DNA of 64,000 nt. Source: Psammoneis japonica. Its lineage: Eukaryota. Shown here piece by piece: positions 1 to 57,299 of the stretch (position 1 is its first letter; each line of letters begins with the position of its first letter). A model generated the notes under the pieces. It worked only from the letters and a program-made list of their open reading frames with translations, was not told the origin of the DNA and did no database searches. Position numbers and translations under genes: made by a program. Where the stretch lies: positions 1 to 64,000 of the forward strand of contig QPGO01000256.1 in assembly GCA_008632985.1 (NCBI GenBank), given 5' to 3'.

Positions 1-1808
1 ATGAGTTGTTGTGATTGAACAAGACTTGTTGTCTTGGAGAAAACCAAGGGACATCTTTTGCTTGCTTTTTTGTCTGGTCAGAAGCTCCAAGAAACACAGA
101 AAGCACAATGGGGTTGTCCACTGGGCAGACATGGCCAATGGACACACCACAGTGGGAGTTCTTCCTTCCTGTGCATTGACCAGAAGTGCTGTCACAGTCC
201 TTGCACATGCAGGTGGAGGAGGAAGAATCAGCAGGAGTTTTGCCTGCTTTCTCAGACAGAGCCTTGAAATCCAATCAACCAAGGATGGGGTGACCCTCAT
301 TGACAATCTAAAGGCTGTTGTTGTGGTGATTTTTGTTTGGAAAATGCACATCACAAACAAGATGTTGCGCTGTCACAACAAAAGTCAACAACAGATCTGC
401 GAACATCCAAGCACATCATCATGTGATGACAATGTTTCCCATCAGGGTGTGTTGATGCTTGACTCCTGTCAAGATTGGGCGGTGCAAAGACAACACAAGC
501 AAGTGTGTCCAATGCTTGCAGCTGGCCCAGCCAAGCTTGTAGAGTGATGAAATGTTCTTCCAGTGTGATTGTTTGGGTTCTTCAAGCATTCAATCACTTT
601 GGCTCAGATCGGAGATTGCTCAGAGGTGAGATGGGCCAACAGGAGATGGTGGTCTGTGCCTCCCCCCTGTGCAAGTGGGGGGGTTGTTCTGCATTGCTGC
701 TTCTGCGACGCTCAGTGTGCCGCAGAAGCAGCACTCATGGCTGTGAACACCTGACGAGCCACAGCAACCTCATTTTTTTCTTTCATCAATGTTGCACTGC
801 ACGTTGATGAGCAGAGAGTGAGTTTTTGCTTGCAGCTCATGCCGCCCACCCTTTGTGGCTCTCCAGCAATGGCTCGAATTCCGGGTCCCCGGAATTGTGA
901 GCTCTGGCTCAAGGTCTGGTGTTTGTGGCTTGCGCCACAACCAACCAGAGTGCTCAGTCAGGAGCATCACCACCAGAGAAGAGCAGAGTCAGAGAACAAC
1001 AGAGGGCAATCAACCAGTGATTGCATGGCATGCAACCTCCATGTGTTGATAAAAACCCGCGTGATGACCTGTGGAAAATTACAAACGTGAAGCACCGCAA
1101 AAGGTGTGGCAAATGAAGATCATTTGCCACAGTGCATCACGCAGTTGTGTTGCAATGACAAGATCCAAATGACCATGGGGGATCCTTTGTGTGAGGCTGG
1201 AACTGGAAAGTTGATGGCACCAGAAGTGCCAACCAACCAGCAGGCAAAAGGGGTCTCCATGGCCAGCCACTTTCAGCTTGCGGAGGGCTGCAAATGTCCT
1301 CCTTGTCATCATCCAAGTCCTTGGTTGATCTAGATGAAACCCCTTGCTCTGATCTCAGCATGTGCAACATCACTCAATGGGGTGTTTGAGGCATCTTTGT
1401 TGGATTCCTGCCCAACCAGGCTGGTCACTGGACACATGTTCCTCAAACTGGGTGCTTGGTTGTCAGCATTTGTGCTGCTTTTGACAAGCACTTTGTTTCC
1501 ACTGGTCTGCCCCACAATGAACTTGTGTGCTGATGCAATGCCCGCTCATGGACATGCACTTTTGTGTTCCAACCTTGTCAATCAACTGCATGCGCTGGTC
1601 TTCCTTGCACGAAAATGGATTTTTCCTTGCCACGGCAGAAGCATCGGCAACTTGCACAATGTTGGGGAGTTTCAAAGCCATCAAAAGCCATCCATTTTAC
1701 TGGCTTGCTCCTGCATGGGTGCCACACTGCACCTGGTTGTTGCTGATCAGGAGTCATTTTGGTGATGTGACAAACTTTTGGCACAGACTTTTTTCTTCTC
1801 AGTTGTGC

Positions 1809-1810
<2 letters not shown>

Positions 1811-1838
<28 letters not shown>
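1811..1838 (+). repeat. (CA)14 microsatellite
   Basis: Read directly from the sequence. Confidence 0.95.
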
Positions 1839-1839
<1 letters not shown>

Positions 1840-3059
1840 CAAAAAACAAATGCAGGTGCTCCCAGATCATTGGATGGAACTCCTCCTCAAAAATGCGCAC
1901 ATTTTCTCAAATTAAAATTGAACAGATTCCAGCCGATGGCTCCCCAAAAGTGAGCAAAATGTGTCAACAAGGCCTCCGACAGATCAACCATTTAGTTGCC
2001 TGTCCATTTGCCCTCATTTCCCATGGCAAGATGATGATGCTTGTGGAGCTCTGAATTTATTGAGTTCCTTTTTTAGTTGATTTGGTGAATTTCTGTGTTT
2101 GCCATGTGCACTGCATGGAAAAAATGCGCGACCCAAACTCAACTGGGAGTGCCAAATTTGGCTGACGCAGCCAGAACTTTACACACAAACTGTGGGGTTC
2201 AGTGACAAAATTAAGTGGAACTGTCCCCCAGGCATGGGCTGGGCAACATGTGACCAAAACTTGTTGTTCTCCCAATGTCTTTCACATTTTCTCTTCTTCA
2301 AAGTGTCAAGATTAACAAAAACTTTGAATGGAGGATCGCAAAGGCTGTCACTTTGTCCAGGATGATTGAAGCCACCCAGCATTCACATCTTGTGTCATCT
2401 ATTTTTTTCTCATGCTGGCTCAGGAGAATTGAGGCACAATCTCCGAACAATTTAACCACTGCAAATGATTCCTCTGCTTGGCAATGTTGTGCAGTGCCCA
2501 CTCATTGCCGATCTCCCCATTCACATGCATGGCCTGCCTTGCACAAGAATTGGACAGCATTGAAAATGGCAAACCCACCAGAAGGGCATCGTGCAAAGCA
2601 TTGCAGCAAAGTTTCTGCAGCTTCATGAGTGATTGGTTGAAAAATGATCAATGCTTGCAAAGAACACAAGAAAGAGACCAAGCTGGCATTTGGCAAGAAA
2701 CCAGCTGGCTTGACAAGCAACAGAGAATTGAATGAGCACAAATTGACAAAATGATCTTGAGTGCTGCTCACAGCATCAAGGTGCAAGTCTCATCAGTCTC
2801 ACCAAAATTGGCCATTGGTGAGATTCATGAAATCCAAGACAAGGTTGGCATGTGGAAAATGAAGTTGAGTTCTGCTGTTTGCCACCTGCAAATTTGCACA
2901 AGAAAGGAGTGGCCCAAAGCACTGCACAGCTTTTTTTTTGCACTGGCACCAAGGCTGCTGCAAATCCTTACAAGCATTGGCTGCAGCACAAGAGGCCAGT
3001 GCACCAGATGATGAAAATTGCAAATGAAAAGCAATCTCTAAGATTCCAAGTTTCTGCCT

Positions 3060-4060
3060 GCATCCCATGTCTGGAACTTGCACCACCAAAACCTTGGGAA
3101 CCATCATCCAATGAGTTTGCACACAGAATGAGGATGTTGTTGAGCTGAAGGTCAACACTGTCACCAGCTTGTCTCAATCCTCAGGGCTCAGGGCTGAGCC
3201 CAAAGGGGGACCAAAAAGGGGGATCAAAGGGGGTGTGTGAATGAAGCACATTGCATTTCTGCAATCCGGCCATGCAATGGTGAGTTTAACCACCTGGAGG
3301 AGATCACAGTTGCTCTGGTGATGACTCTGCATTGTACAAACACAAAGCAGCCAATGCAACCATTTTCCATCTTGACATGAAAGGGGATGGCTTGCATGAC
3401 ACATGTGACCAAGACGTGTGTGAGGATGATCATGAGAAGCACACAGGCAGGTGTTGCAGGGACAAGGCTGCTCTTCTGAGTCCACGGGTGATCTCTTCAT
3501 GGACAATGATGAGAATGTGGAACCATTTGAACTCAAGTCATCATGTCCCAAGGCAGAAAAGCATGCACCTGAGGAGATGGATGAACATCTCATGGCCAAG
3601 GTGATGCTGCCCAGGGGTGGCGAGCTCCCAATGCAAAGGACAAGAGAGCCACAAATGTGACTCAGATGGAATGCCAACCAGAGCTGGGAATTCCAACCCA
3701 TGTTGGATTCCTGACTGTGCAAGGTGGAATTTCCGGATGGATCCACTGATGCATTTGCAGCACACACTGTTGCTGAGAACTCATTCTCCCAGACAGACAA
3801 TGAATGTGGGACTTGCCAAATCGTGAAGGAGACAGTGGGTCACCAAAGTGATGCGTGCACCATTGAAATGGACAACAGTTGTTTCACTGCCTGTGATGGC
3901 AGTCAGAGACCCAGACAAATGACTGTTGGCTCCAAGTTGAATGGAAGGATGGCACGACTGACTGGATGCCTTTGGCTGAAGTCAAGGAGTCCTTTCCCAT
4001 GCATGCAGCTGAGCATGCAGTTGCAATGAGATTGCCAGTGATGTGAACCATCTTTTAACT
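3060..4060 (+). mobile_element. Ty1/copia LTR retrotransposon pol remnant (region between integrase and RT), frameshifted
   Basis: Fragments 'DEHLMAKVMLPRGGE', 'EFPDGSTDAFAAHTVAENSFSQTD' and 'WKDGTTDWMPLAEVKESFPMHAAEHAVA' resemble diatom copia pol motifs (EV.LPRGGE, VEFPDG...AN.IAEN..SQVD, WKDGTT.W.PL...KES.P...AEYAVAN). Confidence 0.75.
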
Positions 4061-5873
4061 GATGAGTGCAAAGACTCATTCCATCCAGTGTGTCACTGGA
4101 TAAAAACCACCAATCACATCATTCAAGTCCCAATCTCATTTGAGCACTTGGTTCTTGCACTCTGTCACAAGTTCCCGGAGATTGACAACAAGGTCATCAA
4201 CATCATCGTCAACTTCATCCAGAACATGCTTCACTTCTTGTCCTTCTCCCGGGGTTCCCCTTGAAAACCTTGAACAAGAATCCACAAAAAGGCAAGGTGT
4301 GGTCAACCAAGATGCAGCATTGTTTTGTTGTGGGTGCTCCCACTGACCTGCATTGATGCCAATGAGCCAATTGGCTTTTTGTTGATGGAACCTCTCAACC
4401 TGGGATCCAAGAGCCAGTTGCTGAGACCAAGAAGTTCTCTGACTTCTTGGAGGGGATCACTGACTCTCAGTTGGAGATGAACATCATGAACAGCAACAAG
4501 GGCAAGTCCTCAAGCTTTGAGCTTTGCCAGCAGTGTGCAAAGTCTCTTGTTGAGAATGCCAAGAACTGCAAGATTGGCAACATGCCATTGGCTCAGTTCA
4601 GAATGAATGCAACCCTGGAAAGAAGGGTGAGCTCAGCAGGAAGAAGCAGGACAAGGAAAAGTCCAGGATTGGGGCTGGACACCATCTGAAAGACAAGTGG
4701 CTGGATCTGGCTCTGGAGGAATGAGCCAAGGTCAATGAGCTTCATGAGAAAAAAAGAAGGAGAAGACTGAGTGGAAGCACAAAGCACAAGGCTGCAGCTG
4801 TTGATGCCAAAGACAACAATGCTGCCAGGAAGATTGGCAAAGTCTCTGGCAACCCTCTCAAGCCTGACAAGACTGAAACCAAGCCCAGTGCCAACGGTGA
4901 CAAGCCTGCACCTGAGGAGCCAGGAGCTGAGGCCATGGGTGGAGCCATGCTTGTGCACATTTTGGGAGGGTGGTGCATGAGCCCAAGCCTTTGGTTGAGG
5001 ATGCAATTGAACACAAACCCTTGAAGGAGAACAACAATCAGGAATGATTGTTTGCACTGACAAGCAAAAGAGGACTCTTGTGACATTGCCCATTGGCAAC
5101 AACAGTTTTCATCTGACTTCCTCACATGGTGTTGCTGTTGGCGCTGCTTCCACCAGTTTTGTCAATTGAGTGTGTGCCTTGTCCTCAGTCAACACTGAAT
5201 CTCATGATGGAATGTCTTGCAACAAGCTTGACTTGCATGCAGACACATGTGTTGCTGGATCAGCCCATGTCCCATTTTCTAATCCCAGCCATGTCATTTC
5301 AGTGAGACCACACTTGGATGAGTGCGAGCTGGTTCACAATGTCCCCACCCAGTCAGTCACCACTGCCCAGACAGATCCCTCAAAATGTCAACCATGCTTT
5401 TTTACATTGCATGAGGCCACACATTTTGGGGACCAAGTGAAGAACTTGTTGACATGTCCCAACCAATTGCAAGCCAACAGCTTGACTGTGGATGATGAAC
5501 CAAGAAAGCAGTTTGACAGCACAAGTTCACACTCAATCTCATTCCTGGACTTGAAAGTCTGGATTCCTCTCAAACTGAATGGAGTTGACTTTGCTCACAA
5601 ATCATGCAAACTGACCAACAAAGACCTGAGGAACCACCATGTCTGGAACTTGCATCACTGACACCTTGGAAACCATCATCAATGAGTGCACACAGAACAA
5701 GGATGTTGAGTTGAAGCTCAACACTGTTGCCAGTTTGTCTTGATCATCAGGGCTCAGCCCAAAGGGGGGTCACAGGGGTGTGAATGAAGCATGTTGCATT
5801 TCTGCAATCTGGCCATGCAATGATGGGTTTAACCACTTGGAGGAGATCACTGCTGCCAGTGATGACTCTGCAT
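3068..5873 (+). repeat. Diverged direct repeat pair, ~3068-3333 and ~5641-5873
   Basis: Both copies run tgtctggaacttgca...cagggctcag...gtgtgaatgaagca...tgatgactctgcatt, indicating two copies of the same copia family. Confidence 0.85.
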
Positions 5874-6758
5874 TTCACACCCAAGATTTTGTCCAGGTGG
5901 TGGGGCATTGGTCTAACTGCTGAATGGAACACACTCAGGGTGACCACTCAAGCCAGAGTCAGGAGCATCTGTGCACCATCTGAGAGGAGGAAGGTGTGGA
6001 AGAAGACCCTTGGCTCAAGTTCCCAGTGTGTGTGACAAGTTTTGTATGGACCAAATGTTTTTGAAAGTTGGGTCAATTCATGGGGACATGACAGCTTGAT
6101 TTTCACAAACGGCCAAGGATGCTGCTGTTTCCACCCTTGGGACTCAAAGGGGAAGCATCCAGACTTGAAGATGTCTTTCATCCATGATGCTAGAGTTCCT
6201 CTTGAGGTTGTGCCTGATGGCACACCCAAGTTGGCTGACAGACACATCAAGGAGATCAGCAAGGAACACGGGATCAAACAGGGAGTGACTGTGCCCCATG
6301 GTGGCAGAAGATGTCAGAGAGGACCTTGAAATGCTTGATTGTGCCATTGAAGGTCTTGTGTCAGTTCCGAGTGCACTTTCTACACCATTCAGCAGCCGGT
6401 GTTTCCATGACGGCATGCATGCTGAAGACTCGTTCCATCCAGTGTGTCACTGGAAAAAAATGTCAATCACATCATCTGAGTCCCGCTTTCCAGTCTTGTT
6501 TGAGTGCTTGGTTCTTGCACTCTGTCATGAGTTCCTGGAGATCAACTGCAAGGTCATCAACATTGTCATCATCATCATCAATTTCATCCAGAACATGCTT
6601 CACTTCTTGTCCTTCTTTGGGTTCCCCTTAAAAAATCTTGAACAAGAATCCATGAAAGGGCAAGGTGATCAACCAGATGCAGCATTGTTTTGCTGCGGGT
6701 GCTCCCACTGACCTGTGTTGATGCCGATGAGCCAATCGGCTTTTTGCTGATGGAACTC
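4063..6758 (+). repeat. Diverged direct repeat pair, ~4063-4395 and ~6420-6758
   Basis: Both copies share aagactc.ttccatccagtgtgtcactgga...ttcatccagaacatgcttcacttcttgtccttct...gggtgctcccactgacctg. Confidence 0.85.
4390..6330 (+). mobile_element. Ty1/copia gag-protease-integrase remnant
   Basis: Gag-like 'DFLEGITDSQLE...FELCQQC', protease-like 'KLDLHADTCVAG...HFGDQVKNLLTCPNQLQAN' and integrase-like 'LSRWWGIGL...TLRVTTQ' and 'FIHDARVPLEVVPDG...HGIKQGVTVPH'. Multiple stops and frameshifts. Confidence 0.75.
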
Positions 6759-7246
6759 TTCCTTGTGATCATCTGAGAGATCTTCAGCTCCAAAACTGAC
6801 AGCTCTCATGACAGTGACCATTTTGCCATTTTTTTCATCACTCTTCCCCCAGAGCATGGCAGCAGCTTTGTACCTCCCATCTGAAGGAATGTGTGGCTTC
6901 ACTGCTGGAAACAATCTTGTGCAGTGAGGTGTCAAGCACTCTTTTCCATGCTCGCGAATCTCGACTGGGTTCCTGTTGTCATGTTCAATGTCCCAAATGA
7001 GTCAAGAGCAAGGACTGTTTTTGTTTCCCTTGTTTCTGCCCTGACCAGCGTGAATCCCTCTGTGAGCATTGAAAGTCATCCGTTCAATGCTCTGTGCAAA
7101 TGGAGAATGACTCCACTGCACTTGCAATTTCTTCATCAGTGCAAATGCTTGGTGAACATCATCAGGAGATTCTGACAGTCTCAACAGTTGGGTGTTTCAA
7201 CATGCTTCCTCTGCACTGAGCAAGACAAAAGAGATGACCAGCCACA

Positions 7247-8130
7247 ATGGCATTTTCTCTCACACCTGCTCAGGCCATCACAGGCATCTTGACTTTGCAG
7301 AGAAAGCTCACAGAGCCATCTGTGCAACAAGGCAGCAGTGGAGAAGCTCGTGGAGGGTGGCTTCGACTGCACACAGAGGCAAAACTGTTTCAGTTCCTCA
7401 AAACCCTCAAGAACAGAGCTGCAGAGAATGGGTGGAATGAAAACAATGGGATTTTGACAATTCCTGATGATCCGATGTGGACATCATGTCTGATGCCACC
7501 AACTTGTTGTGACACACTGCAGTCAAAAATGGTGAGGTGGACCTCATCTGGCTGCGATTGTGAGTGCACGCACATTGATCAACCGGCAAGGCTGGCACAC
7601 AACACAAAGATGCTGTGCCACCTTCTCATGAGTGCATTTTCTGAAGAAGTTAAGACTGGAATTTTGGCATGGGAAAAGCAACACAAAATTCTCAAGAACA
7701 ACAAGATGCATCCATCGGGAAACCTTCTGTTGAGGGTGAAAATCAAAGAAAGTCACCTCGACGCCAACACAACTGCATCAAGCATCAGGATGGCACTTGG
7801 CAATCTTGACAAGTGCACTGGCATGGTGTTGAGTAACATTGCCAAATTTGGTCAGTGCACACTGCTCTTGATGCAAGCTCTCAAGTCCTGTGGTGAGATG
7901 ATGGAAGACCTGCGGCTGGACTCATTCAAGGAACACCTTGCTGCACCTGACAAGTCATTTGGCAATTGTGTCCATTGCAAGCACAGCAAGCACAATTGAG
8001 GACATGACATGGATTCCAATGAACTTGTGAACCTTGCAGACAACAAGTGCAAGAAAAGATGGTGGAGATGGAGGAATGGAGAGCACCACCCGTCAAAGAG
8101 AAAAAGATTCTGGCTCTGGAAGCAAGGTTG
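7247..8130 (+). mobile_element. Ty1/copia gag remnant (second family)
   Basis: 'FSLTPAQAITG', 'PSGNLLLRVKIKESHLDANTTASSIR', 'LADNKCK' and 'EKKILALEA' resemble diatom copia gag. Positions normally Tyr read Cys or His. Confidence 0.75.
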
Positions 8131-9027
8131 ACACCCTCAAGAAATCATCTTGAGGCAAGAAGACCAATTGAAAGAGTCAGAAGAAAGGAGGGAAGAACAC
8201 GCATGGCCCCAATGTTGATGTTCTCTTGTGTTGTCGGGGACGCCGCAGTGGGGTGATCTTCGATCGAGCTTGAAATCGCCGAAACATGAAAACAAAACCC
8301 AAAATTTCAATTTCCAAATTGCGTGCCTTTTTTGGCACTTTGCACAGTGTGCAGAAGTCTACGTGTCTGTTTGTGTGTGCCAGGGTGCTCCAAAAGGTTT
8401 TCCCCACGGAACATGCTCCCTCCTTGCAGAAGAAAGACAATGTCTCGTTGTGTCATCCAGAGGTGCACAAATTGTCTGTTGTCATTCACACACACGCATT
8501 TGCACACTCAGCACAACGACATGTTTGGAAATTTTGCTTTGGAGCCATGGGGGGACACCTTGAGCATTGTGACAACACAGCAGCCTGGTTTGACCTTGGC
8601 TGCTCAAAAGCCAGCCCCCCGGCCGGGCCCGCTCTGCTTTTCCTCATCATGCACAGTGCGGCGCTCTCTTCTCTTTTGTCCACCATTGTCAAAAACAAGG
8701 CTTTGCAATGAATGGATGATCAAGAGACATTTTTATAGTTTGTTCTTGACAGGAATGCCAGTTGTGTTGTTGCTGTGTTGTGCCTGGCAGACACTCCACT
8801 TGCATGGCAATGTTCGTTTGGCAGGGAGAATTGCGAAGGTGAGCGAGCTCAGCGCAGCCGCCATGGCACAACTGAACAAAACTTCCCTCCGACAAGCGGA
8901 AGTTTCAAAATTCTGTAGAAACTACGTAGTTTCGATACCACATCAAGAATCAATCAAAGTATACATAACTATAAATACATAAAAGAGAATATCCAAAATT
9001 CCGTGCAAACACAAAATCTTGTTCACC

Positions 9028-11989: not shown

Positions 11990-13850
11990 GAACAGGTGGC
12001 GCTGATGGAGTCAACACATGACAATCTAGAAAAAGAACTGCACATCAAACTGCGGCATTCTCTCTGACGGTTTGCTTGTGGACAGTCGTGAAACATCAGG
12101 GTTGTTCTTCATGGGGGAATCAGAGTTCAAGGGCTGCATCTCTGGATTGTCGTCAGTCCACTGCTCCATCAATCCACTGCCAGAGCCATTGCTGTCTGTG
12201 GAGGTCCTTGGGCCAAATGGCATGATCAACATCATGCAAGCAACCGAGAGTGGCAAGCTACAAAGTGCAACTCTCTGCCACAGGCAATTCCAAAAGCAGT
12301 GGGTGGACAGCCATTGGGAGGCAGCAGTTGTCAAGCCATGAACAGAGTGCATCTTTTTGCCCTCTTCATCTGTTTCATCATGCTTTGAGACAAGTCCGGC
12401 ACCCAAAAAGCCAACACAAGATGGAATGGCTGTGGATGCTTGGGAAGCATCCCACTCCATGGGGCCACCAACAAAAGCAAAAGCAGAACAAATCAAAAAT
12501 GAACATGATCCCAGCACCACCACCACCACCATGGCACAAATGCCAGCAGGACGATCCGACTGGCATCACTCCCATCCAACAACACCACCAAGCAAAACCA
12601 AAACTGCCAAATGACATCCAAAGTTGCATTCCTGCTCAGTTGGAAACAAAAGCTCAATCCAATGCAGGTCCCAACATGGACAATCAACAAATCTTAGATT
12701 GGTGCATTCAATGTCATGACCAATGGGCAAACAACCAGCCATCTGCTTTTGCACATCTGAGAAATGCAATCAATCACACAGAGAGTTGCCAGATGTTTGA
12801 TCCCTGCTTTTTCTGCCAGTGACAGTTGAGCTGCCAACACATTGGTCACAATGAGCCACTGGGCCCTGTTGGGCATCAGGTGCTCTGAGACATCTTTGTC
12901 TTTTGTGCTGACAAACAACAAGCCAAGAAGCAGTGGGGACAAATTTTGCAGTCACAAGGAGTCAGAGCAATGTCACACTCCTCCACTTGCTCCTCACTGC
13001 ATTCAATGCATGAAGTGACATTGTCCATTGCCATTGCATTTTTGGTGCAATCCACTGGATCGGCAGTGAGATGTGCAGGGTTTCACATTCTCCAACTCAC
13101 CATTTTCAAAGTTCAAGTCTGCAGGATGTCCACACAAGTTGAAGTTTGATCACGCAAGCCAGCAAAATCAAAAATCATTCAACAGGCAGAGGATGTCACA
13201 ACTGCACATCAGATGAGAAGGCCCAGACCTTCCACATGTGGGTGGCCAAAGAACTGTTTGTGTTAAAGAGAGAGGCCAAGTGAGCGGATGTTTGTCCCAC
13301 TGTCACCGCATTGTGCACACATGTGAGAGCTCCTGCCAACAGAGATTGGGAGAAGCCAGTCCATTGTCTCAAGTGCATGAACCAAACAAGAAACAAAGTC
13401 ATCACTGCATCAAGCGCAAAGGATCTCGGAGTTGTCAAGTGGTGTGTGGGCGCATCGTTTGCACTGACTTCTTTGAGAGCCACACACTGAAAGAGTCATG
13501 AACGTGGGCAATGGAGCAGTGCAGGCCACCTTGAAGTGCCAGAAGCTCAGCACCCAAAGCAGCACAGAAGTCAAACTTGCTGGAGTCAGCAATGCCACAT
13601 GACTGTGATGCCATGTGGACGACGAAGCTGTTCTTGGAGGAGCACCGCTAGAAGGGGCATGGTTGACAAGAACATCCTGTCTTTCTCTCTAGAGAGGCCC
13701 TCCACTGCCAGGAGCTGCTCTCTACTGCTAGAGACAGCAGTTGCCACAAGTGCAAGCATGAGCAAACGGGTCTGTTCTTCGCCCAAGTGTAATTCGACAC
13801 AAATTGTTGGATTCAGGATTCCTGATGCTCAGCCCATTTGGGCGAAAAGG
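11990..13850. repeat. TpA/CpG-eroded degenerate block B (element family not identified)
   Basis: TA and CG are strongly depleted between two intact genes, and no intact ORF is present. Confidence 0.7.
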
Positions 13851-17760: not shown

Positions 17761-19000
17761 GATTAGAATCGAAAAGGTTGCTGTTGTTGTAAGATGGAAG
17801 CAATGGTGAAATAGTCTAGCTCTACTAGAGTAGAGCCTAACTAGACCTAATAAGGTTGTACGTTGTACGGTCTGATACAGCGGTTTGGAGATTGGAGATT
17901 TGGAGGTGTGTGTGAGTTGCTTGTTGCGCGCGCGCGCGGCCAGGGGAATCGTCCCTCCGCCGCCCTCTACCGGCAGCAGCTCGCGATGCAATTCACACAT
18001 GCACTCTAACCGTCTCCGTGCAGGTGTGGAATCAAGCGCTGTTAGACTGGGGAACGTCTTTGGAAGTGAGACTGTTGAAGAAAGTTACGTAGAATTTGCA
18101 CTAAAAACAGTCTGTCAATCAGTGCGATTGGGGCATTTGGGAATGCTGGACAGATCCTGCCTGCGTGTTTTCTTGTGCTCACAAATCGCACTTGGGAAAA
18201 CCCCAAACGCGATCAGACCGCCTTCAATGATCTCACTTCCAAACATGCCCCCCATGCGCTAACTGTGCCAGGCAGTGGAACAACAGTGTGTGCAAACCGG
18301 AAGTCCACTGTCTTCACAAAAGACAATCTTGGACAGCCCTTGCGATGCCAGTTTTTTGTGTTGCTCCTCAATCTTCGCCTCCCACTGGCCAGTGCAATGA
18401 GGCACTCCTCAAGCACATTCAGCACTTGTGCTTCAAGGTCTGATGGGCACCTCTGCTCAAGGCAGGAACTTGCACCCAACTGTGTTCAAATAATTTGATT
18501 GCTTTGATTGGCTTGATTGCTTTGATTGATTTCCTGGCCTGGAGTTTGCCCACCCAAGAGGCATTGAGAGACAGATGATGTGAAGAGTCAAACTCTGGAC
18601 CTTTGAGACCATCCTTTGTAAAGACAATGGACTTGCAGGTCTTGTGCACCACTGTTCCACACAGCTGGTCGAAAGAGAAGAGGGCATCTGAGCACTCAGA
18701 GAAATCGTCAGCATGTCCTTGGGGTCAACTGTCTTGGCCAAAATGGGAGCAGCTTCGACCATGGTGCTCTCCCTCTCTGCCAAAGAAGCAGGAGTGAAAG
18801 TGACGTGCCTGTCAACAGGAACACACCACATGCCACTGTGGGCCAGTTCATGGGGGTGTGAGGGAGCATCAGTGGGCTCAGTCATCGTCTGCTCGGGGGG
18901 TCCAAGCGGAAGACTGGAGGGGGTGTGTCTGTGAAAGCAGAGAGATTTGCAGAGGTGGTGGCATCATTGGCAGGAGAATGTCTGTTGGTGTGTTGATTCA

Positions 19001-20400
19001 TCAAATGACCTTGATGCATTCCCGTCTTGCCCATTTCCTTGTTGACACACTTGTCACACCAATGCCAGGTGTTGCCTTTCTCTCATCCTGGAAGGTGGGG
19101 CCTTTGTTGACAAAGGACCATGCGGTCTTGGAAGGTTTCCCAGCTGTGGTTGGCTTGTCTGCTTCCTTGTCCATCAGCGCATCCTTGAGTTTCTCACCTG
19201 CCTTGACCTTCTGGTCTTTCTTGCACTGATCCTCACAGGCAGGACATGTGTGTTTGGTGCACCCGGCTGCACCACAGCCACAGCAATGCTTCGCCTTGAG
19301 AGGTTGGTTGGGAGCATGGTTGGATTGAGGCAGTTCAGCAGCTGGGACAGGCCAATCCTCATCACTGACAAGCTCACCATGGGTCCAGGTGATCCAACAA
19401 ACAAGACCGACTGGTCCAAGAGACACACAGTCAGCATCCTTTGGTGCCTCTGCAAGGTCGTTGAAATGACACTTGCACTCTAAGGCCTTGACAAGGTCCA
19501 GCTTGGCAAAGACTTGACAGTTGAAAAACTTGGAGGACATCTTGGATGCCTTGGTTAAAATGGTGAAACCAATTTCAACTGGTGGGGCATGGCCTGTCTG
19601 CATGATCTTCAGCAGGCAAAAAGCTTCAGTTGTTGCAATCATGGTGCATTCCTCCCCGGGGCAGGAGTCAAACATCAGATCCTTGAGTTTCTCCTTTGCA
19701 GACTTAACGTCATTGAGAGCACTTGCGTTGCACATGTCAAGCTCACAAGGAACAGTGCAGAGCCTGGCAATTTTGTGAAGTCCGAGACATGACTGAACTT
19801 GACTTCAATCTTCTTGCAAAAAGCTTCCAACACATGAGGCTTGACAAGGAGTTGGGTCAGACCAATGTTGTCCAGCTTGCATGCACTGGTCACAAGCTTT
19901 GTCACCCAAAGTTGACACTTGCAAGTTTCATGATCTTTCACAATGTCATTGACGGTGAATGCACGGAGGTTGTTAAAAAGACACATGGCTGAACTGTTGC
20001 TCTTCTTGACTTGACAAGGTCTTGGATGGTCTTCACAAAGTGATCCTTGTCCACCTTGGTTTCAGAGCTGTTGAGTAACTCAACATCACCACTGAACTTT
20101 GAAGCAGTTGTGAGGCAAGTTGGTCTCAAAGAGAATGCTCAATGGAGTTGACCGCCCTGGGATGGCAATGCTGAGATGTGCAGCTGCAGGTGTGGGAGTC
20201 TTCCTGTTTGCAATGCTTGTCCAGAAGAGAGCCACCATGGTGCACGCCATGGGACACACATGCATTCCTCAGTGCACAGGCATTGGAAGCATGGAAAATG
20301 CATTGGATGCATTCACAGCCACAAAAAACTGTTGGATGACAGCCAGATCCATTGCTGCAGCAGGGCAAGGAGCAGTCACAGCAGGAGGAGCAGGAGGAGT
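19001..20400 (-). mobile_element. Ty1/copia gag remnant with eroded zinc knuckle
   Basis: 'DSCPGEE...LKIMQTGHAPP...FFNCQVF...LGPVGL...HGELV..EDWP' followed by 'CCGCGAAGCTKHTCP', which has CX2CX4(H)X4C spacing. Confidence 0.65.
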
Positions 20401-23396
20401 GGACATGGTTCTGGATGACAAGTTGACACAGAAGATTGATTGTGGAGTTTCGACATGGAAGATCACCATCGGATCACAACACAGAAGATTGCTTTGGATG
20501 GGATGTCATCCAAGGATGATCAAGCAGCAGCAACTCCATCACAAGTTGACACCAGTGTGTTGTTGGGGTCGCAACTGCTTGGGACACAACAATGCACAGT
20601 GCAGGGGAGAGAGGAGGACTCTCTTCAGGTTGCACAACATGCACAGAGGATGATGAACAGCTGTGGGGGACAACAAAATGTTCTAAAGATGCAAATTGTG
20701 AGAAGATCTCACGGTGGTTTGGAGAGGACACTCAGACCTGATGGTCAGTTGTGTCACATGTCCTCCAGAGCCAAGCTCCTCAAAGTCACATTGGTGCTGC
20801 TGCAAGATGACCAAGTGTCCTCATTCAGCCATGCTTCAGTCCAAAGACATCCTGTCATCTCAAATGAACAAGTTGCTGGTCAGGAAAAGAGCTTGTCAAA
20901 GTCAAATGGATGATGCCAGAACTGCTCAGGCAGAAGCAGAGCAACGTGAGAAAATGAAGATGCTGGCTAGATGTGTGGCAAGGAAGCCAACACCTCCAAA
21001 TGAAACAACTCATGTTGCAAGCAGGCCAATGCCGCCAAACAAACCAACTCACTTTTCCATGCAATTTGGGTCCAAATTGTGCTCCCATCTGCCACCTTGC
21101 TGTGTGTGCATGCAACATGCAGTGCACTTTGCTGGTTGCTTCTGCCCCTGTTGCCGTTGCACATGACCCCACCAAGGACAGCTTGAGCCACAACAGCCAG
21201 TGCACAAATGGTCAATGCCACCATTTTGGGTGCAACAACATAAATTCAGCAGCCGCTCATGACAAAAACAAGCCATCCAATCAACCATGGGCATCTCTTG
21301 CCACTTCCAAAGGACAAAGTGCCTTTCCGTTGGTCTCAGACAAGTGTCTTGCACACACCCTGGGCTCACGTGATGCATTTGTTGATTCTCTGCACACCAT
21401 TGCAACTGCCAGGACTGTGGACAGATTCATTTGAGATGTCGGCAAGAGAGCCAAAAACTCTCGAGCAACTCAAAGACAGTGACACAACTGGCTTCTGCCA
21501 TTTCCACAGTCAGCTTCAAACATCAGTGTCAACAACAAAGCACTCACTGCATCATGTTTGGTGTTGCACGCTTCCTTTTTTGGGCTTGCTGGTCCAAGTG
21601 GTGGCATGTGATCTTCATGAAGCAATCCAAAATGAGCAGTCTTCACATGGCGGGGAATGTCAGATAAAAACATGGCCAAGCCATGCAGGAGCTGTCCGAT
21701 TGCTTTTTGTTCAGATTGGTTCAACCAGTGATTTGCTGCAATTGCCCAAGCACTTGGTGGCAGCAAATTCCGAGGACAGGTCACACACAGGGCAAGGTGT
21801 TGTCCCTTTTTCAACAATTTCTGCAACACTGGCACGCCAGTGTTGGAGAAATCTGTCAAGGTGATGGCACCTTCATTTTCCAACTTCCCCCCCCCCCTCA
21901 ACTGTTGTGTTTGCCTTGCGAGACCACTCACAATTTTTCAGGTTGGGCATTCTTGCTGCAAGAGACAGCTTGCGGCTTGCCAGATTTTTAGTCATGTTGT
22001 CGGTGGAGCTGCAATTCACCGGCACCCAACTTGGTGCACAATGATTTGCAGTGGTGTCCAAGCTCCAATTGAGATGAATCTGCTCGAGCAAAATTGTGGT
22101 TGGCACCCATTGGACTTGTCAGACAAATGCACCTTTGGCACTCCATTTTCATTGAGTTGTGAAAAGGGGATGGGAGTGTCTTTGGGAATGCAGTCCTGGC
22201 CCTCATTGCATCAGCCATCACCAATCGACTGTGTGACAATACACGTTGTCTCCTCACCATTTGTCACAGGCAGCTGCAGCTTGGCAGAGATGCTCTTGAT
22301 GACCATTGCCATGAAGTCCTTGTTGGGAAATGTCAAACCCAGCCAACCGGAGCTTCTTCATTCCTGTGTCACTGCCCGGACAAGTCATGTTCAGAACATT
22401 GACATTGAATTCTTTTGCAAGGGTGGCACAGGCACTGACCACCTTTTGAGACTTTGGATCTTGCACACCGGCCACTTTGGAAATTATTTTCTTGATGAGT
22501 TTCTTGTGTGCAACATGGGGGTGGAAACATTGCGGAATGGGGGCACAATCATGTGCAACTTGCAACATGCGTTGTCAACACTGTAATCCATCACAGGGTG
22601 AGACTGTGTCAACTGGAATCATGCACCACCAACCTTTTCACCATCCAAGTCATGGTGCCCATCAAAGGACAGGAATTCATGTCCCAGGAACCTGCAGCAC
22701 TCATTGGTGCACAACCAACCAGGGCCAATTGAGCAGCTCCAACCCCAGCAACAAACGCAACCGTGTGTGAGAGGAGCCAATGACTTTGATCAACTTGACA
22801 ACATGTGAAGGACCACACTCACCTCCATGCAATTGCAATGAAACATTTCACAGCAGCAGGCATTGTTGGAGAATGCATGAAAACAATGAATCATTTCCAG
22901 AAACAGGAAACCCAACACTGCACAACTGTCCTTGGCCAGTGCATTGGAGATTCTGAGAATCTCATCAAACAGTGACACCATTTGGACCAAGGGTTGGCAA
23001 TGAACAGGTGTTGTCTTGACCAAAACACTGTCAGGACAGTGGAGAGCTGCACAACCACCTTGCATCATGCAGGTGGCAGCTGGTTGTGCTCTGGTGGATC
23101 AAGCAATCACTCACCTTGCCAAAAATTCCCATCCGTTCACAACAGTCAGACACAGATTTTTTCCAACCCTCCATCATCACAGCCGTCACCATCACATTGG
23201 TGTGTTTGCACACAAATGTTTTCCATGTGTCACACAAGTCACTTGAAAAACAGCATCCCTGTGAGTCGGTGTGACAATTTGGCCTGTCTGGTCCAATGTG
23301 TGACCCATCATTTTTGTGCATCACAAAGTCAAATGAAACAAACTCAAGGTCCACCCAATCATGGATCTTCATGACAAAGTCTTTCCTTCTTGCAGG

Positions 23397-23595
23397 AAAC
23401 CAGGTTTCATCAATGAATGATTCATCAGAAAGGAGTGCAGAGTGAGCTCTCTTGCAAAGGTCATTGAATGCCAACATCAAAGAAGTGCACCAGGCAAAAC
23501 CGGGTTTCATCAATGAGTGATTCATTGGGAAGGAATGCAGAGTGAGCTCTCTTGCAAAGGTCATTGACTGCCAACATCAAAGAAGTGCACCAGGC
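23397..23595. repeat. Tandem duplication, ~100 bp unit x2
   Basis: Both units contain gtttcatcaatga.tgattcat...gcagagtgagctctcttgcaaaggtcattga.tgccaacatcaaagaagtgcaccaggca. Confidence 0.9.
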
Positions 23596-26129
23596 AGCTC
23601 CAGTCTTGAACCCTGGATGCGCAATCCCATCTTTGTTGCAATCAACACATTGGTCCCCACAAACTCCAACAGCAAATCCTCGGTTGCCCCTTGGGCCGCA
23701 TTCTGCCACAAATTTGTTCCGAGGATCCAACTCATTGTCCTTCACCATAACATCACACCACACAGATTCAAGATCAAGTGACCGGATGTCATCCTTAAAG
23801 GTCTCCTCACCAACCAATGCAAACGCCACACCCCCCCATTGCTTCAATGTGTTGTGCTTCTCAGCTTTTACCTCCGTGCATTGAACATCCAAGCAATCAC
23901 ATTTCAACTTGCAATTGTTGAGCATCGAATCACACAAAGTAAAATGAGGTGAGCACTCAAGCTTGTTTGCCATCACAGAGCCATGATCAGCTCTCTCACA
24001 TGCCAAGACATGCTTTTGTTTGCACTCATTCTTCGAGCACAGCACAGATGTCAGGAAACTTGTGCTGACAATTCTTGACTTGGCTTTCATCCTCCAGAAA
24101 GAAGCTGGGAAGAAAGTCGTGCTGACAGTTTGCTTTGCACTTCTTTTGCTTGGCAGCCTTGGCTTCCTCTGACTCCTCTTCCTCCAAGGGCTGCATCGGT
24201 GGCTTGGGATGCAGTGCATCAAGCTCCTCTTTTGCACATTGCCAAAAGACTGTGTGAGTTGAGTGGAGACATTGAAACCTCTGCTGTCATGATGGGGTTG
24301 CTCTTCATCTCTTTGCAGGTGTGCTTTTCAGTTGCTTTCTTGTGACGGTGCCAGGGGCTTGTGATGCAGCCACAGTTTGCTTTGTCACTTGACAGCCTTG
24401 GCTTTTCTTCCAATTCACAGGCTGCCAGCTCTTGCTCTGAGGGCTGCATTGGTGGCTGGCTTCAGATGCAGTGCATCAAGCTCCTCTTTTGCATGTTGCT
24501 CAAAGACAGTGTGAGTCAAGTGGAGATGTCGAAACCTCTGCTGTTGTGCTTGCTTGCTTTGCATCAATGTGGCACTGTTCTTTGCTTTCTGCTTCAATGC
24601 TGTTGGCATTGCACTGGCATTGTCAAGCATGGCAACCTTGCACAGGCGGTTTGTCAGAGAACCGCTGGGCAAGGGGTGGGAGTCAAGTGATGCAAGGGCA
24701 AGCAAAGGCAATCCGCCCACGGCAATGCTGCGTTTGAATGTTTTGCCTGGATTTGCTGTGGCTGCAACAGGAGAATCTGAATCTGATCCAACATCTCACG
24801 TGAAGTGCCTTCTGGCAATGCAGCGGTGATGGGTGCAGATGCAGGGCTGGCCATTGTTGCACATTGCTGCTGTTGCTGCAAGATTTCATGAGAGCGGCTC
24901 TTGTGTTGCGAGTCGCTCATTTTTCTGCCACGGGATGATTTCTGGCATGAATCCCATGTTGAGTTTCAAGTTGCAACAGACTGTTTGAGGTCAAAACTTT
25001 TGAAATCACTTTTTTCTTGATTTGAGGGGCTTGCTTCGTGCAAGAGGAACAAAAAGCGAGATGACCTGGTGCAGGCATTTGTGGGCAATTCACCTGTTTG
25101 CAAGACAACAGAAATGTGCCCCATCTTTGTCCTGCACAAATCCTTTTTCTTCCTCTTTCATCCAGAGAAAGCAACAGTGCTGCCAGCTGGGCTCAACCTC
25201 TCAAAATGGGGGGTGCAGGCACCATGTGCAAGACAACAGAATCACACTCAGTCTTTGCTCCTCTTTCATCCAGAGAAAGCAACAGTGCTGCCAGCTGGGC
25301 TCAACCTCTCAAAATGGGAGGTGCGGGCACCACATGCTCGAGAACAAACAACGGCCACATTCTGAGCAACAGGGCAGCCAACATCTTTGCAGGAGCATTG
25401 TGCAAAATGAGCAAAAAGGTTGCCATCCACCAAATTTGACAGCTTGCTTGATTTGACTGCATCGAACATTTGCTGCTGGCTGGCAAACTTTGCCCTGGCC
25501 CCAACCCATTGTCTTTTTTCATCCCAGGCATTTTCAAAAATCTTTTGCAGCTTTTGTTCAGTGCCCAGCACTCAACACACATTTGACTGCAAACAAGTCC
25601 CTTTTCTTGCCATGTTCAATGTGGAGATCACTGAATTTGCAATGCATCAACGTCAGCAAGGAAGGACATTTGAGTCACAGACACACTTCCACAGCTTGGT
25701 TTTGCTCTTGTTCAACCCAAATTGTCCCCTGCTTCAAAGGATGCCATGGAGCTGCAACCATGCTGCAGCAGACAAAAGCGCCGACTGTCAGTGCACCAGC
25801 ATCTGTTTCACACCAGCACACTCACACAAAGCAAAGGAGACCAGCTCAACTTGGTGGCAGGCTCAGCAAGGGAGCTGGAGAGTGTCACCACATCAGAGAT
25901 GATCTTGCACTCCTCTTCTTCCTGGCTGGTGAAAGCCTTGATGCTGAGTGGCTTGCAAGATGAGCTCTTGAAGCAGTGCGTCTAAATTGTTGTTGTGGTT
26001 GCTGCCCCACTTCTTGACATCGCCAAGCTTCTTGAGGTCCACATGTTTCTGGCCTTCATTGCAGGCAGCGAGGTTGGCAAGGGCGCACATTTCTTCCTGG
26101 CTGTCCATGACTTCCTCCACGAGCTGGAC

Positions 26130-26520
26130 CCTCAGAGAAATTTGGGCAATGGTCGGACACCATTGCACTCACCCACGAAACGGCCATGGTGGAGGTCATG
26201 TTGAAACAGCAAGAACTTTGCTGGAAATGGAAGCAAACATTGAGGCAAGAGACTGCCGAGGAAATGCCACATTGAGCTGTGCAACCTCAATCAGCAAGGC
26301 GATCGTAGACTTGCTGCTTGATCATGGAGCCAGTGTCAGCGCAGTTGATGACAGAGGACGGCTGCCGATTCATGGCACCACATGGCAGTGGGGCAATCAT
26401 GACACTGCTTTGCGGCTGCTGAAAGTTCACATGCAACAGTTGCAGGCAAGCAAAAATGTTCACCCTTGCATCTTTGCATGCGCCATCGCCACAGTCGGAC
26501 ACATTGCCGAACATGGAAAT
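26130..26520 (+). pseudogene. Ankyrin-repeat gene remnant
   Basis: 'GRTPLH' frameshifts into 'GGHVETARTLLEMEANIEARD...AIVDLLLDHGASVSAVDDRGRLPIH'. Confidence 0.75.
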
Positions 26521-26762
26521 GAACACGACCGGTGTCAGACTGACCACACGTTGTCATTCGAGTTGCTTCGTCAAAACCCTCGCTTGTTTTTGGGTGCATC
26601 TCTTGGTCTCGTTGACCAACTCCAACACCCTCTCCCTTTCCTCTTGAGCCTCAGCCATGCCAGCCTTGTTTTTGCACAGAGATTCACCGGCCAATGGATT
26701 GAACCTCTGTCTGCTTCTCTTTGATTGTGTCATTGTGGGTCTTCCTTCAAGCAAACCTTGAT

Positions 26763-27676
26763 GACTTGTTCCAGACTTAGGTGCACTCACGCGCGAAAAA
26801 ATGACCCTTTTTGCATGAAACGCGCGGTCCACACTTGCGGTGCCATTTTCGATAGTAAAAACATAACAATTTACAAATGTGTTGTTATGGGTACATACAG
26901 AATTGTCTTGTGCGTGTACCCATGTATTCGAAACTGTTGATGGACTCAGTTATTAGTCGCTAAATTGTACCGTAAGTTGAGTGCTCGAATTTTCCGATGA
27001 GCGATTTATATATGCCTAAATGTAACAAGAAACATATAAAATATTATTCATATATATAAATTAAGTCTTTAACATAGCATAATTAATATTTTGTTTATAT
27101 ACGCGAATATGAGTTACACTCAACGGATCGAATAAAGCATTCGTTGATTAATAAGTTTAGGACGACGTGAGAAGAAGTGTAGCTCAGCCCACGCAATGGC
27201 GTCGACTTCGGACCATTTTTCACGGTTTAAAAGGCATAAACGATTGATACACTTGAATCAGTCGAATATATTGAGGAAATATACATGGTAATAGAAAAGA
27301 AATGGTCCTTAGAGGCAAATTGTGAGTGAATAGAGGCTCAATTGTTGTTGCTGACAGATTTAGCATTATTGTGCCGCGCTGCAGCCTTCAACAAGCATTT
27401 TCACTATTGTTGTTGATGACACAGACTATATCAAATACGGAGATCGTGGTCATGACATTCAATTTTCCATAAGGCTGAAAAAAGTGGGCCGTCATGGTCA
27501 CTGAAAGCCATGGCCGGTTTGGCTGTTTGTTTGTTCGAGTTTATTCTGTTTATTTTACTTACAAGCCATTGATATGATCAATTTTATTAAATATGTACGG
27601 TGTTCGATAAAGCATTAAAAAATTATTTTTTCTGCGAAAAGGGGCATGTGCGCGCCACCTAAGTCTGGAACAAGTC
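26763..27676. mobile_element. Non-autonomous TIR element (MITE-like), 914 bp
   Basis: Perfect 21-bp TIRs GACTTGTTCCAGACTTAGGTG at 26763-26783 and 27656-27676, flanked by a 4-bp TGAT direct repeat. The interior is AT-rich and non-coding. Confidence 0.9.
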
Positions 27677-27779: not shown

Positions 27780-30100
27780 GAAAAATGAACTTTTTCTTTT
27801 GAGCTGCCTTTTCCACTTTAATTTTTCAGAAGAAAAATGAACTTTTTCTTTTGAACTGTCTTTTCCACTTTAATTTTTCGTTGCATCGTCTCAGAAGCAC
27901 CGCTCTTCTCAACTGAACTTTTTCTTTTGAACTGTCTTTTCCACTTTAATTTTTCGTTGCATCGTCTCAGAAGCACCGCTCTTCTCAACTGGGATTCTTG
28001 CCATTTCTGGGCACCGCTCATCTTGTGATTCTCACAGTTGCCATTTCTGGGTTTTGTCTTTTTCTGCCCATCTCAGGCATTTTAAAAAATCTTCTTGTTG
28101 CTTTTTGTTTGATCAACTCTGTCCATTTTGGGCTGCGACGATGCCACAGTGCAGACCAGTTTGATGACACTGTGCTGTTGGGCAGAATTTTGTGACAACT
28201 TGGCCATTGGTCTGGCACTGAGGTCCAGCACAGAGGCGACTTCAGAGGAGGATGCTGTCGTCAATCCTCAGCTTGAATCTTTGGCATTGCACAACTTCCA
28301 GTTGCTGTCCGAGTGGCTGCAGCAGCTCGAAACAATGGAGCGATGATGTCTCAGAAGCACCGCTCTTCTCAACTGAACTTTTTCTTTTGAACTGTCTTTT
28401 CCACTTTAATTTTTCGTTGCATCGTCTCAGAAGCACCGCTCTTCTCAACTGGGATTCTTGCCATTTCTGGGCACCGCTCATCTTGTGATTCTCACAGTTG
28501 CCATTTCTGGGTTTTGTCTTTTTCTGCCCATCTCAGGCATTTTAAAAAATCTTCCAGCGGTGCAGACTGGTTTGCTGCGCTGTTGGGTGGAGCAAGAGGG
28601 TGTCTTCCGTTGCAAAAACACAATGTTTGACAACTTAGCAGTTGGGCGACAAACATGTTTGACAACTTGGCAGTTGGGCAGTTGGTCCAGCACTGAGGTC
28701 CAGCACTGAGGCAACTTCAAAGCATGGTGCTGTGAGCCCTCTGCTTGAATCTTGGGCATTTCAGTTGGGGTGCAGACTGGTTTGCTGTGCTGTTGGGCAG
28801 AGTGAGAGGGGTGTCTGTTGCAACTGATGCTGTCAGCCCTCCTCTGCTTGAATCTCAGGCATTTCAGTTGGAGCACACAACTTCTGGTTCTATTTTTCCA
28901 TGTTTGAAGAAGGCACTGGTGTGTCCAACTGCTGCCATCTGCACATGTGTTTGCATCTCATAGATTTTAAAAACATTTGAGAAGATTTTGTTGAATCATC
29001 TGTTGTGGAATCTTCATGGTCTATTTTGAACTGCTTTGTCTTTGCCTTTTTCACTTTTGTCTTTCATTGCATCAGCTCCAAAGCAACATTCATCTTGATG
29101 CCATTGTTGCCATTTCTGGGTTTTGTAATTTTTGTTCATCTTAAGCATTTTCATCTTTGAGTTGTTGACCAAAATTAGGTGCGTGGGGTTGGAAGGGAGA
29201 AAAATCAAAGCGAAAAAGGATTTGACTACCTTGCCTTTGGCATGCTTCTCTGTTCCGCACCAATCCTTTTTCTTCCTCTTTCATCCAGAGAAAGCAACAG
29301 TGCTGCCAGCTGGTCTCAACCTCTCAAAATGGGAGGTGCGGGCACCACATGCTCGAGAACGAACAACGGCCACATTCTGAGCAACAGGGCAGCCCAGATC
29401 TTTGCAGGAGCATTGTGAAAAACGAGCAAAAATGACACCATCCACCAAATTTGGTGGCATGCTTGACCACATCGAACATTGTCTTTTTTTCATCCAAGGC
29501 ATTTTCATTAATCTTTTGCAGCTTTTGTTGAATAATCTCTGTTGTCGAATCTTCATTTGCTTTGAACTGCCTTAGTCATTTTAATTTTTTGTTGTCATTT
29601 CTGGGTTTTGACTTTTTCTGTTCATCTCAGGCATTTTAAAACTCTTCTTGTTGCTTTTTGTTTAATCATCTCTGTCCATTTTGGGCTGTGATGATGCTGT
29701 GGTGTAGACTAGTTTGATTGATGCGCTGTTGGGCAGAGTGAGAGGGGGTCTGTTGCAACCACATACAATGCTGCAACAACTTGGCATTTGGGTGTTTGGT
29801 CTAGGACTGAGATACAGCACAGAGGCGACTTCAGAGGAGGCTATCAGTCCTCAGCTTGAATCTTTGGCATTTCAGTTGGAGCGTATATTTTCTGGTTGCT
29901 GTTCTTTCCTTATTTTAAAGAGAGCACTGGTGGGTCCAACTGTTGCCATTTCTGCACATTTTTTTTCTTCTCATGGATTTTCAAAAATCTTTGCGCAGAT
30001 TGTTGTTGAATCATCTCTGTCTATTTTGGGCTGTTTCATATCAGCCCTTTCTATTTTGATTTTATTTGCATCATCTAGACAGTATATTTCATACGTAATT
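27780..30100. repeat. Complex array of partial direct repeats; a related copy lies at ~25140-25560
   Basis: 27888-28093 is repeated essentially identically at 28348-28553. The module gtg(c/t)agac..gtttg occurs four times. 29263-29480 matches 25141-25465. Confidence 0.85.
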
Positions 30101-56830: not shown

Positions 56831-57299
56831 GAAGCAACATTTGGAAGACAGATCAAATGCTGGGTGCTGTTGGCACCTTTTAAGATTTGAGACTGCAGAG
56901 GATCATGGATGACACACAATTTCAAATCATCAGTTTGCCTTGCACATTCACAAAAAACAACTAAATTTGCATGCATTGATTGACTCCAGTTTGGGCTTTT
57001 TTTTGCATTGTTGCTTTCAAAGAACAGGCAGAAGTGTCGCCGGTGCACAAGGCACAAGCAGCAGTTGGACATGTCATTGGTCCTGCTCANATGCACCTCA
57101 CATGTCACATGCTGTGAAAATCTCCCAACATCCAACATGTCAATGAGTCTGCCAACAACTGCCCCCCCCCCCCCCCCCCCTCCTGCAACATTGCTCACCA
57201 AACACCCAATGCTCACTCAATGCTCTCCACCTGCCCAATGCTCACTGCTCAGGCTCCACCTTCATTGATCACAACTGTCATCTGACACCTGATGAATCA

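Follow-up and report, generated by a model that had tools for sequence, protein, structure and literature searches.

The stretch of DNA analysed here (the window) comprises 64,000 nt of Psammoneis japonica contig QPGO01000256.1. At positions 7247–8130 it carries a dead, frameshifted gag of the Ty1/copia type, 884 nt long, in which two TA dinucleotides are left where 59 are expected from base composition. CG was also depleted (11 observed, 50 expected), while TG (95 against 49) and CA (104 against 60) were both in ~1.8-fold excess. The copy is truncated after gag. A homologue search with frame 7238–7996 as query gave 34 homologues at 32–37% identity from 612 candidates, and the 28 longest, which are full-length, were aligned. 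A Pfam scan found no family for the window gag nor for three of the four homologues scanned, the fourth giving one weak unrelated match. The identity of the window gag as Ty1/copia rests on the pol genes linked to its own-genome relatives, which have RVT_2 (1.2e-36), gag_pre-integrase, TG...CA LTRs and 5-bp target duplications. The gag and the codons at its scored Tyr columns are as follows.

7247..8130, plus strand: dead, frameshifted Ty1/copia-type gag
7571..7573, plus strand: CAC (His) at invariant Tyr column 124, gag alignment
7616..7618, plus strand: TGC (Cys) at invariant Tyr column 139, gag alignment
7682..7684, plus strand: CAC (His) at Tyr column 161, tblastn
7814..7816, plus strand: TGC (Cys) at invariant Tyr column 201, gag alignment
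7856..7858, plus strand: TGC (Cys) at Tyr column 215, gag alignment
7934..7936, plus strand: CAC (His) at invariant Tyr column 241, gag alignment
7967..7969, plus strand: TGT (Cys) at Tyr column 252, gag alignment
8048..8050, plus strand: TGC (Cys) at Tyr column 279, tblastn

Tyr was present in 28/28 gag homologues at Y124, Y139, Y201 and Y241, in 27/28 at Y161, Y215 and Y252, and in 24/28 at Y279. The window gag had His or Cys at all eight columns, every codon being CAY or TGY; six were scored by a stricter aligner and two (161 and 279) were taken from tblastn. Three N-terminal Tyr columns, which lie in the frameshifted part of gag, were left unscored by the stricter aligner, and tblastn placed Phe in the window gag at one of them.

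A sequence-only reading of this DNA had proposed that conserved Tyr is replaced by Cys or His throughout dead elements, as the outcome of TAY changing to TGY or CAY, and that intact relatives would not have Cys or His at these positions. The 12 motifs that it named were all found where it had placed them. In gag, its proposal held at the eight scored columns (two of which, 215 and 252, it had not listed), with 24–28 of the 28 homologues having Tyr. It failed for the first C of CECTHID, which faces Phe rather than Tyr in 28/28 homologues; at this column sibling dead copies alternate between Cys, His, Phe and Trp. The H of MLCH faces Arg in 20/28 homologues, consistent with CpG decay.

The same substitutions were scored in nine dead own-genome gag copies (L001–L005, L007–L009 and L027) at columns with at least 75% Tyr; L006, a 99% twin, and L010–L014, short or twin pieces, were omitted. 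As the TAY prediction required, Tyr was kept at 1/75 conserved positions and was mostly replaced by Cys (35) and His (19), with Phe at 12 and other residues at 8. Because 10 of the 12 Phe substitutions sit at two columns where sibling gag copies have Phe in common, they are probably a subfamily trait. Control residues were kept far more often (Trp 31/37, Phe 37/52, Leu 125/177). Arg, which had been predicted to give His, Gln, Cys or Trp, was kept at 20/61 positions and changed to His at 9, Gln at 9, Cys at 6, stop at 2 and Ala at 7. Sixty-two metagenome gag relatives keep Tyr at 397/474 covered positions. The loss of Tyr at the protein level is confirmed and its original interpretation is supported: Tyr to Cys/His is the trace left in proteins by a process that acts on DNA and turns TpA into TpG/CpA, and DNA alignments give the same direction of change as the protein-level argument from Tyr.

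This gag lies within one of several regions of the window that have lost nearly all TA. The window was divided into erased and gene-bearing stretches by a two-state model, for which training parts had been picked from it by hand. Seven erased blocks make up 34,617 nt (54% of the window), with TA observed/expected (o/e) of 0.03–0.11 and CG of 0.09–0.59, as against 0.48–0.66 and 0.9–1.2 in the gene-bearing stretches; the stretch 39672–40946 is intermediate (TA o/e 0.19, CG 0.78). The blocks include the following.

1..8812: nested dead retroelements (TA o/e 0.06, CG 0.19), including the gag and copia pol remnants with AEHAVA (4008), DECE (5317) and HFGD (5422)
18264..26774: TA o/e 0.04, CG 0.23, with DSCPGE (19669, minus strand) and an ankyrin-repeat remnant
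27979..29471: TA o/e 0.11, CG 0.32
40947..49066: TA o/e 0.07, CG 0.23
55037..59782: TA o/e 0.06, CG 0.09, with GECC (55188, minus strand)

The gag loci had been fetched without coverage of the motifs outside gag, which were searched separately. AEHAVA has Tyr in both of the homologues that cover it. The case for Tyr is also good at DECE, which faces it in three of five homologues, and at DSCPGE, where 87 of 129 matches cover the motif, 49 of them with Tyr and 33 with Phe; it is weak at HFGD, with Tyr in just two of five. It is indirect at GECC, for which no intact homologue was found here: the Cys of the window corresponds to His in nine sibling copies. Own-genome relatives fetched for 5170–5661 (7/7) and for 55.0–55.9 kb (11/11) are TA-poor too. 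Two diverged copies of one repeat fragment (4110–4390 and 6450–6760) were noticed by eye in the first erased block, and a voltage-gated chloride channel gene lies at 9029–11615, where contigs from run X2 leave out four GT..AG introns.

When the genome was searched with an intact gag homologue, 96 matches were obtained. Many of them have open frames; their TA o/e ranged from 0.72 to 0.02, and CpG was mostly near 0.8–1.0. Among them is a young copia family with a 6.57-kb element, 347-nt LTRs and 5-bp target duplications, the copies of which span untouched to saturated. Changes were counted against one little-mutated copy as reference, at sites where two other copies agree. In 11 copies (three diverged copies excluded, the chimeric L077 and L079 still included) the 6,021 TA bases showed 1,347 transitions and seven transversions. 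Transitions elsewhere were 150/29,414 at other A/T, 151/8,125 at CpG and 57/26,773 at other G/C, giving a TA transition rate 44 times that of other A/T. TpA loss is thus a separate process from CpG decay, 12 times faster per base in these copies, and it comes first. L077 and L079, which failed the target-duplication check, and L070, which is the same locus as L074, were dropped from the context-fit, hot-bin and tract-shape counts, and L074 and L080 were also omitted from the hot-bin set as diverged. In the hot bins of the nine remaining copies, validated by target-site duplications, TA underwent 976 transitions and two transversions. L070 and L074 (G000:C334 and C27), at one insertion site, are identical at 93/93 shared mutated sites; L074 has an additional mutated tract in its 3′ half, to be explained by mutation that spread later, by gene conversion or by a chimera in the assembly.

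Of the 472 in-frame TA changes that could occur in the young element, none creates a stop and 312 are missense. It is therefore missense change that kills the elements, and their frames stay long while losing Tyr.

Within single insertions, most differences between the two LTRs are TA to TG/CA (14/20 in L072, 11/16 in L073, 13/17 in L076 and 21/29 in L084), which places the change after insertion. Both strands are mutated within one copy, with 795 TG and 658 CA among 2,831 scored sites, and copies at different loci show the same direction at ~60% of shared sites. There were no strand-coordinated clusters in the validated copies, neighbouring changes being on the same strand in 625/1,200 cases as compared with 616 ± 13 after shuffling. 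TG outnumbered CA in the raw counts (p 4e-4), but this proved to be a context effect; once neighbours were fitted, the sense/antisense ratio was 0.83–0.85. The signs expected of ADAR or APOBEC editing of RNA or cDNA, namely one strand per molecule and identical LTRs, were absent, strands being mixed and LTR pairs different.

Targets were not confined to dead elements. The proposal of Tyr loss ‘throughout dead elements’ stands for the dead gag copies but is too narrow, as duplicated host genes are targets too. Two lie in the window.

12041..12720, minus strand: dead duplicate of a host MgtC-family gene; intact paralogue at G000:C19
38534..41314, minus strand: dead genomic duplicate of a DUF1800/DUF1501 host gene; intact paralogue at G000:C56

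In the MgtC duplicate 18/22 TA and 33/46 CG were changed to TG/CA, and four of five Tyr became Cys or His. The DUF1800/DUF1501 duplicate, which includes ~1.1 kb of downstream flank, had 42/56 TA but just 19/94 CG changed in its ORF, and 9/11 Tyr became Cys or His. These include GEYP to GEHP at 39952, so that the GEHP flagged in the sequence-only reading is a former Tyr site, the intact paralogue reading GEYP. The MgtC and DUF1501 paralogues, on other contigs, are intact; the comparison showed a single TA gain, whereas the dead copies had lost 18 and 42. Mutation of a host-gene duplicate together with its flank excludes RNA or cDNA editing as the route. At least four more TA-erased, internally deleted copies of the 3′ part of the DUF1501 gene were seen (L057–L060; G000:C88, C331, C22 and C47), which suggests capture and spread by a mobile element.

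These observations bear directly on readings that need no chromosomal mutator, namely pre-insertion RNA editing or reverse-transcription errors, selection against TA, a different genetic code or a base-calling artefact. Such readings might draw on the fact that most targets are retroelements and on the chimeric state of two fetched copies, L077 and L079, which shows the assembly to be faulty in repeats. They are contradicted by the differences between LTRs of one insertion, by mutation of both strands within a copy, by the mutated host-gene duplicate with its flank, by the destruction of invariant Tyr, and by a gag Tyr column that reads Cys or His according to the copy while less mutated copies retain Tyr. 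Contigs of run X1 over 7266–8487 differed from the window at 11 positions, none of them within the eight codons, and one difference turns a surviving TA into TG (A to G); as X1 may be the assembly's own sample, it is supportive rather than independent. We consider the non-mutator readings already largely refuted and their truth very improbable. Conversely, there is hardly any doubt that a chromosomal process acting after insertion changed A:T to G:C nearly only at TpA, in near-saturating tracts of kilobase length.

A competing-risk model of the target motif was fitted to 2,831 observations of sites from 11 validated copies. Relative rates of TA loss were 4.2 for TAC, 3.9 for TAT, 1.7 for TAG and 1 for TAA, with A preferred at the two 5′ positions and C or T at +2. 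Off-target A to G changes obeyed the same 3′ Y rule, reaching 30/1,561 (1.9%) at AAY, 34/1,940 (1.75%) at CAY and 9/2,198 (0.4%) at GAY, but only 14/6,403 at AAR, CAR and GAR together, each NAR at most 0.34%. The TA that survive in the old blocks of the window are an independent confirmation of the TAY preference: 63 of 128 are YTAR and five RTAY, as compared with 225 and 346 of 1,161 TA in the gene stretches.

Both the near absence of transversions and the TAY rule favour a pocket of the TadA/ADAT type over an ADAR or an error-prone polymerase. Engineered TadA variants prefer YAY to YAR (PMC12528748); AAY being as frequent off target as CAY counts against a clean YA rule. That AAY is a joint-top off-target context, and that CpG decay and TpA loss share tracts, would fit a polymerase of the pol eta type (WA to WG) filling repair patches in methylated chromatin. 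However, pol eta mutates AA strongly and makes many transversions, as against two transversions to 976 transitions at TA here and changes at 0.9% of AA versus 39% of TA; TpA loss also runs far ahead of CpG loss and has no link to CpG distance. We regard the polymerase as a poor candidate.

Somewhat less improbable, though still unlikely, is an ADAR-like deaminase editing the DNA strand of RNA:DNA hybrids formed with sense or antisense transposon transcripts or guide RNAs. The genome has two A_deamin genes (G000:C40 and C79), and the C79 gene has 270 homologues, named diatoms included. The 5′-seeded gradient described below would be compatible with transcription, and ADARs can deaminate dA in hybrids with a preference for 5′ T (PMC5389660). 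There, however, the best of six sites was TAG (94%), the context that is 2.3–2.5 times weaker than TAC/TAT here. The dsRBDs that perfectly matched hybrids required in the same source are absent from the listed C79 homologues, PF02137 being the sole domain among 120 listed, and the mutated copies have no strand runs.

As A to G on one strand is T to C on the other, thymine chemistry fits the same table, and the strand-symmetric spectrum reads equally as T to C. Oxidized or alkylated T lesions yield transitions, and such a T, at RR-T-A, could pair with G at replication. We know of no enzyme that writes a mutagenic T mark with TpA specificity, and a search of the genome for Tet_JBP gave no match. 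The genome does hold many DNMT-fold genes (27 DNA_methylase matches), and diatom DNMT4 has no assigned function (PMC9998398). The TAY rule nevertheless resembles the pockets of the TadA family (PMC12528748), and we give the modified-thymine reading a low probability, similar to that of the ADAR-like deaminase.

The distribution of changes along the elements was uneven. Nine of 11 validated copies had lost more TA at 0.5–3 kb (5′ UTR, gag and the start of pol) than at 4–6.2 kb (Wilcoxon p 0.014), a bias that holds within each context class. L214 and L219 showed the same 5′ bias and two of the 11 copies did not; L212 was hit first at its 3′ end, which adjoins an old erased block, and LTR polarity was mixed in other families. 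Seeding near gag and spread inward from erased neighbours is taken as a lead, not a result, because the copies were picked by gag similarity and the assembly contains chimeras (L077, L079). Flank counts gave no clear sign of whether mutation spreads out of elements. CpG loss was 3.5-fold higher inside hot bins (94/3,581 versus 17/2,212, p 1.6e-7), which suggests that TpA and CpG loss may share a CpG-methylated domain, although distance to the nearest CpG did not predict TA loss (rho 0.07, p 0.30).

Sites in transposons and spare gene copies were mutated one at a time, on either strand, with TAY to TGY or CAY as the consequence and CpG decay trailing more slowly in the same tracts. For the chemistry we propose that adenine in DNA is deaminated to hypoxanthine, which is then copied as G, and that a putative zinc deaminase of the TadA/ADAT2-3 type preferring 5′-T-A-Y does this. 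Recruitment would be to silenced, CpG-methylated chromatin and not to homology as such. The 5′ UTR/gag zone would often be the seed, with spread both along the element and inward from erased blocks nearby, and the role may be genome defence. We put the chances of this whole explanation, with its chromatin-guided adenine deaminase, at about even.

The genome has TadA-like (C38), ADAT2-like (C26), dCMP-deaminase-like and other zinc deaminase genes, labelled from motif reading, and those found resemble common tRNA or nucleotide enzymes; no chromatin-reader domain was found in the deaminase frames scanned. Pur_DNA_glyco gave no match in one family search of a possibly incomplete assembly. In L088:319-1791 (G000:C79) a zinc deaminase domain is in-frame with DIOX_N and 2OG-Fe(II) oxygenase domains, and L180 (C151) is a TA-poor fragment of a similar deaminase.

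One of the 27 DNA_methylase matches lies beside a chromodomain frame: in L098 (G000:C34:42155-45664) this frame is directly upstream of the methylase frame, an arrangement resembling the chromo-DNMT4 proteins of some diatoms, whose DNMT4 may be related to RID (PMC9998398). C5 DNA-methyltransferase copies L095–L097, L101 (G000:C301 and C297) and L104 (C28) are TA-erased (4.5–6.8 TA/kb) with CpG intact and 0–2 Tyr per long frame. One set is near the gag remnants L009/L010 on the same contigs, and these methyltransferases are possibly mobile-element-borne or duplicated.

The closest known system is that of Bigelowiella natans, in which integrated NCLDV and virophage DNA undergoes TpA to TpG/CpA hypermutation (Mettrop et al., bioRxiv 10.64898/2026.01.13.699255). 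According to that preprint, the spectrum was seen arising in mutation-accumulation lines; the process acts in mitotic lines, ~1000-fold above background and in some lines only, and the authors suggest reach to transposons and propose ADAT2. The two systems share nearly pure TpA to TpG/CpA transitions on both strands, restriction to DNA that is foreign or silent, independence from a second copy and a proposed adenine deaminase. Host genes are spared here as well, gene segments having TA o/e of 0.48–0.66 as against 0.03–0.11 in erased DNA, and paralogues being intact. Unlike B. natans, the lineage is a diatom, as a delta carbonic anhydrase and the named closest relatives of one gene also indicate, and the process is directed mainly at LTR elements and host-gene duplicates. 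Erasure is near saturation (TA o/e 0.03–0.11 over 54% of the window), compared with 0.45 in the NCLDV region of B. natans, and the process is known here from its scars, whereas in B. natans mutations were seen arising. The TAY preference, 5′-biased tracts and linked CpG decay were measured here, and the main text of the preprint never mentions ‘diatom’, ‘CpG’ or ‘context’.

Like RIP of ascomycete fungi, the process makes dense, dinucleotide-specific transitions in repeats in chromosomal DNA and leaves dead elements behind. The direction is opposite, RIP making TpA from CpA, and changes of the RIP type (C to T at CpA) were at background level in hot bins (10/4,296). RIP makes many stop codons, whereas no new stops arise here. 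In RIP both copies suffer, whereas here one copy is erased and the intact paralogue is untouched; RIP-like mutation of all duplicate copies was not found for the MgtC and DUF1501 paralogues. Decay of 5-methylcytosine (DNMT5 in diatoms) explains CpG to TpG/CpA and Arg to His, Gln, Cys or stop, but cannot touch TA or Tyr, and in the young copies it is the 12-fold slower of the two processes. Base editors derived from TadA, and ADAT2/3, likewise make A to G changes in DNA, with YAY above YAR in some variants (PMC12528748), but the editors are engineered and guide-targeted, while here 5′ T is preferred >25-fold over C and AAY equals CAY. The process is best filed as RIP-like in purpose, not RIP, and closest to the TpA hypermutation of B. 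natans.

Literature searches, with subscription papers mostly outside reach, found no report of TpA hypermutation in a diatom or a transposon; PMC4471660 was a false lead. No saturated copy was found among the 62 metagenome gag relatives (lowest TA o/e 0.25), a search that is weak on absence because it requires intact peptide patterns and draws on consensus assemblies. Four of these relatives (L158, L148, L149 and L157) have CpG o/e of 0.12–0.31 with Tyr kept, that is, CpG decay without TpA erasure; L158 combines CpG o/e of 0.12 with TA of 0.46. Another, L126, which comes from a different assembly, has Cys, Cys, Cys and His at four Tyr columns in succession and shows local dips in TA, and proteins P0173 and P0251 resemble it. 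These three are hints that the TpA process may occur in other organisms.

A broader proposal is that a natural DNA adenine editor serves as a defence in diatoms and chlorarachniophytes alike, with a dedicated deaminase at silenced chromatin, promoter-proximal seeding at gag, a missense-only kill and deficient hypoxanthine repair; we put it forward tentatively, with the balance somewhat against it. The scars have practical consequences. Annotation can take mutated elements for genes, since their open frames stay long. Looking for proteins that lack Tyr and are rich in Cys/His is a cheap screen of any proteome for TpA hypermutation, and LTR-divergence dates are inflated in genomes that have it. 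The measured motif and tract shape are a handle for finding the enzyme, and a natural DNA adenine deaminase, if that is what it is, would be relevant to both genome defence and base editing. With half of the window rewritten, a process known from two viral insertions in one rhizarian alga now extends to the transposons and gene duplicates of a second lineage.
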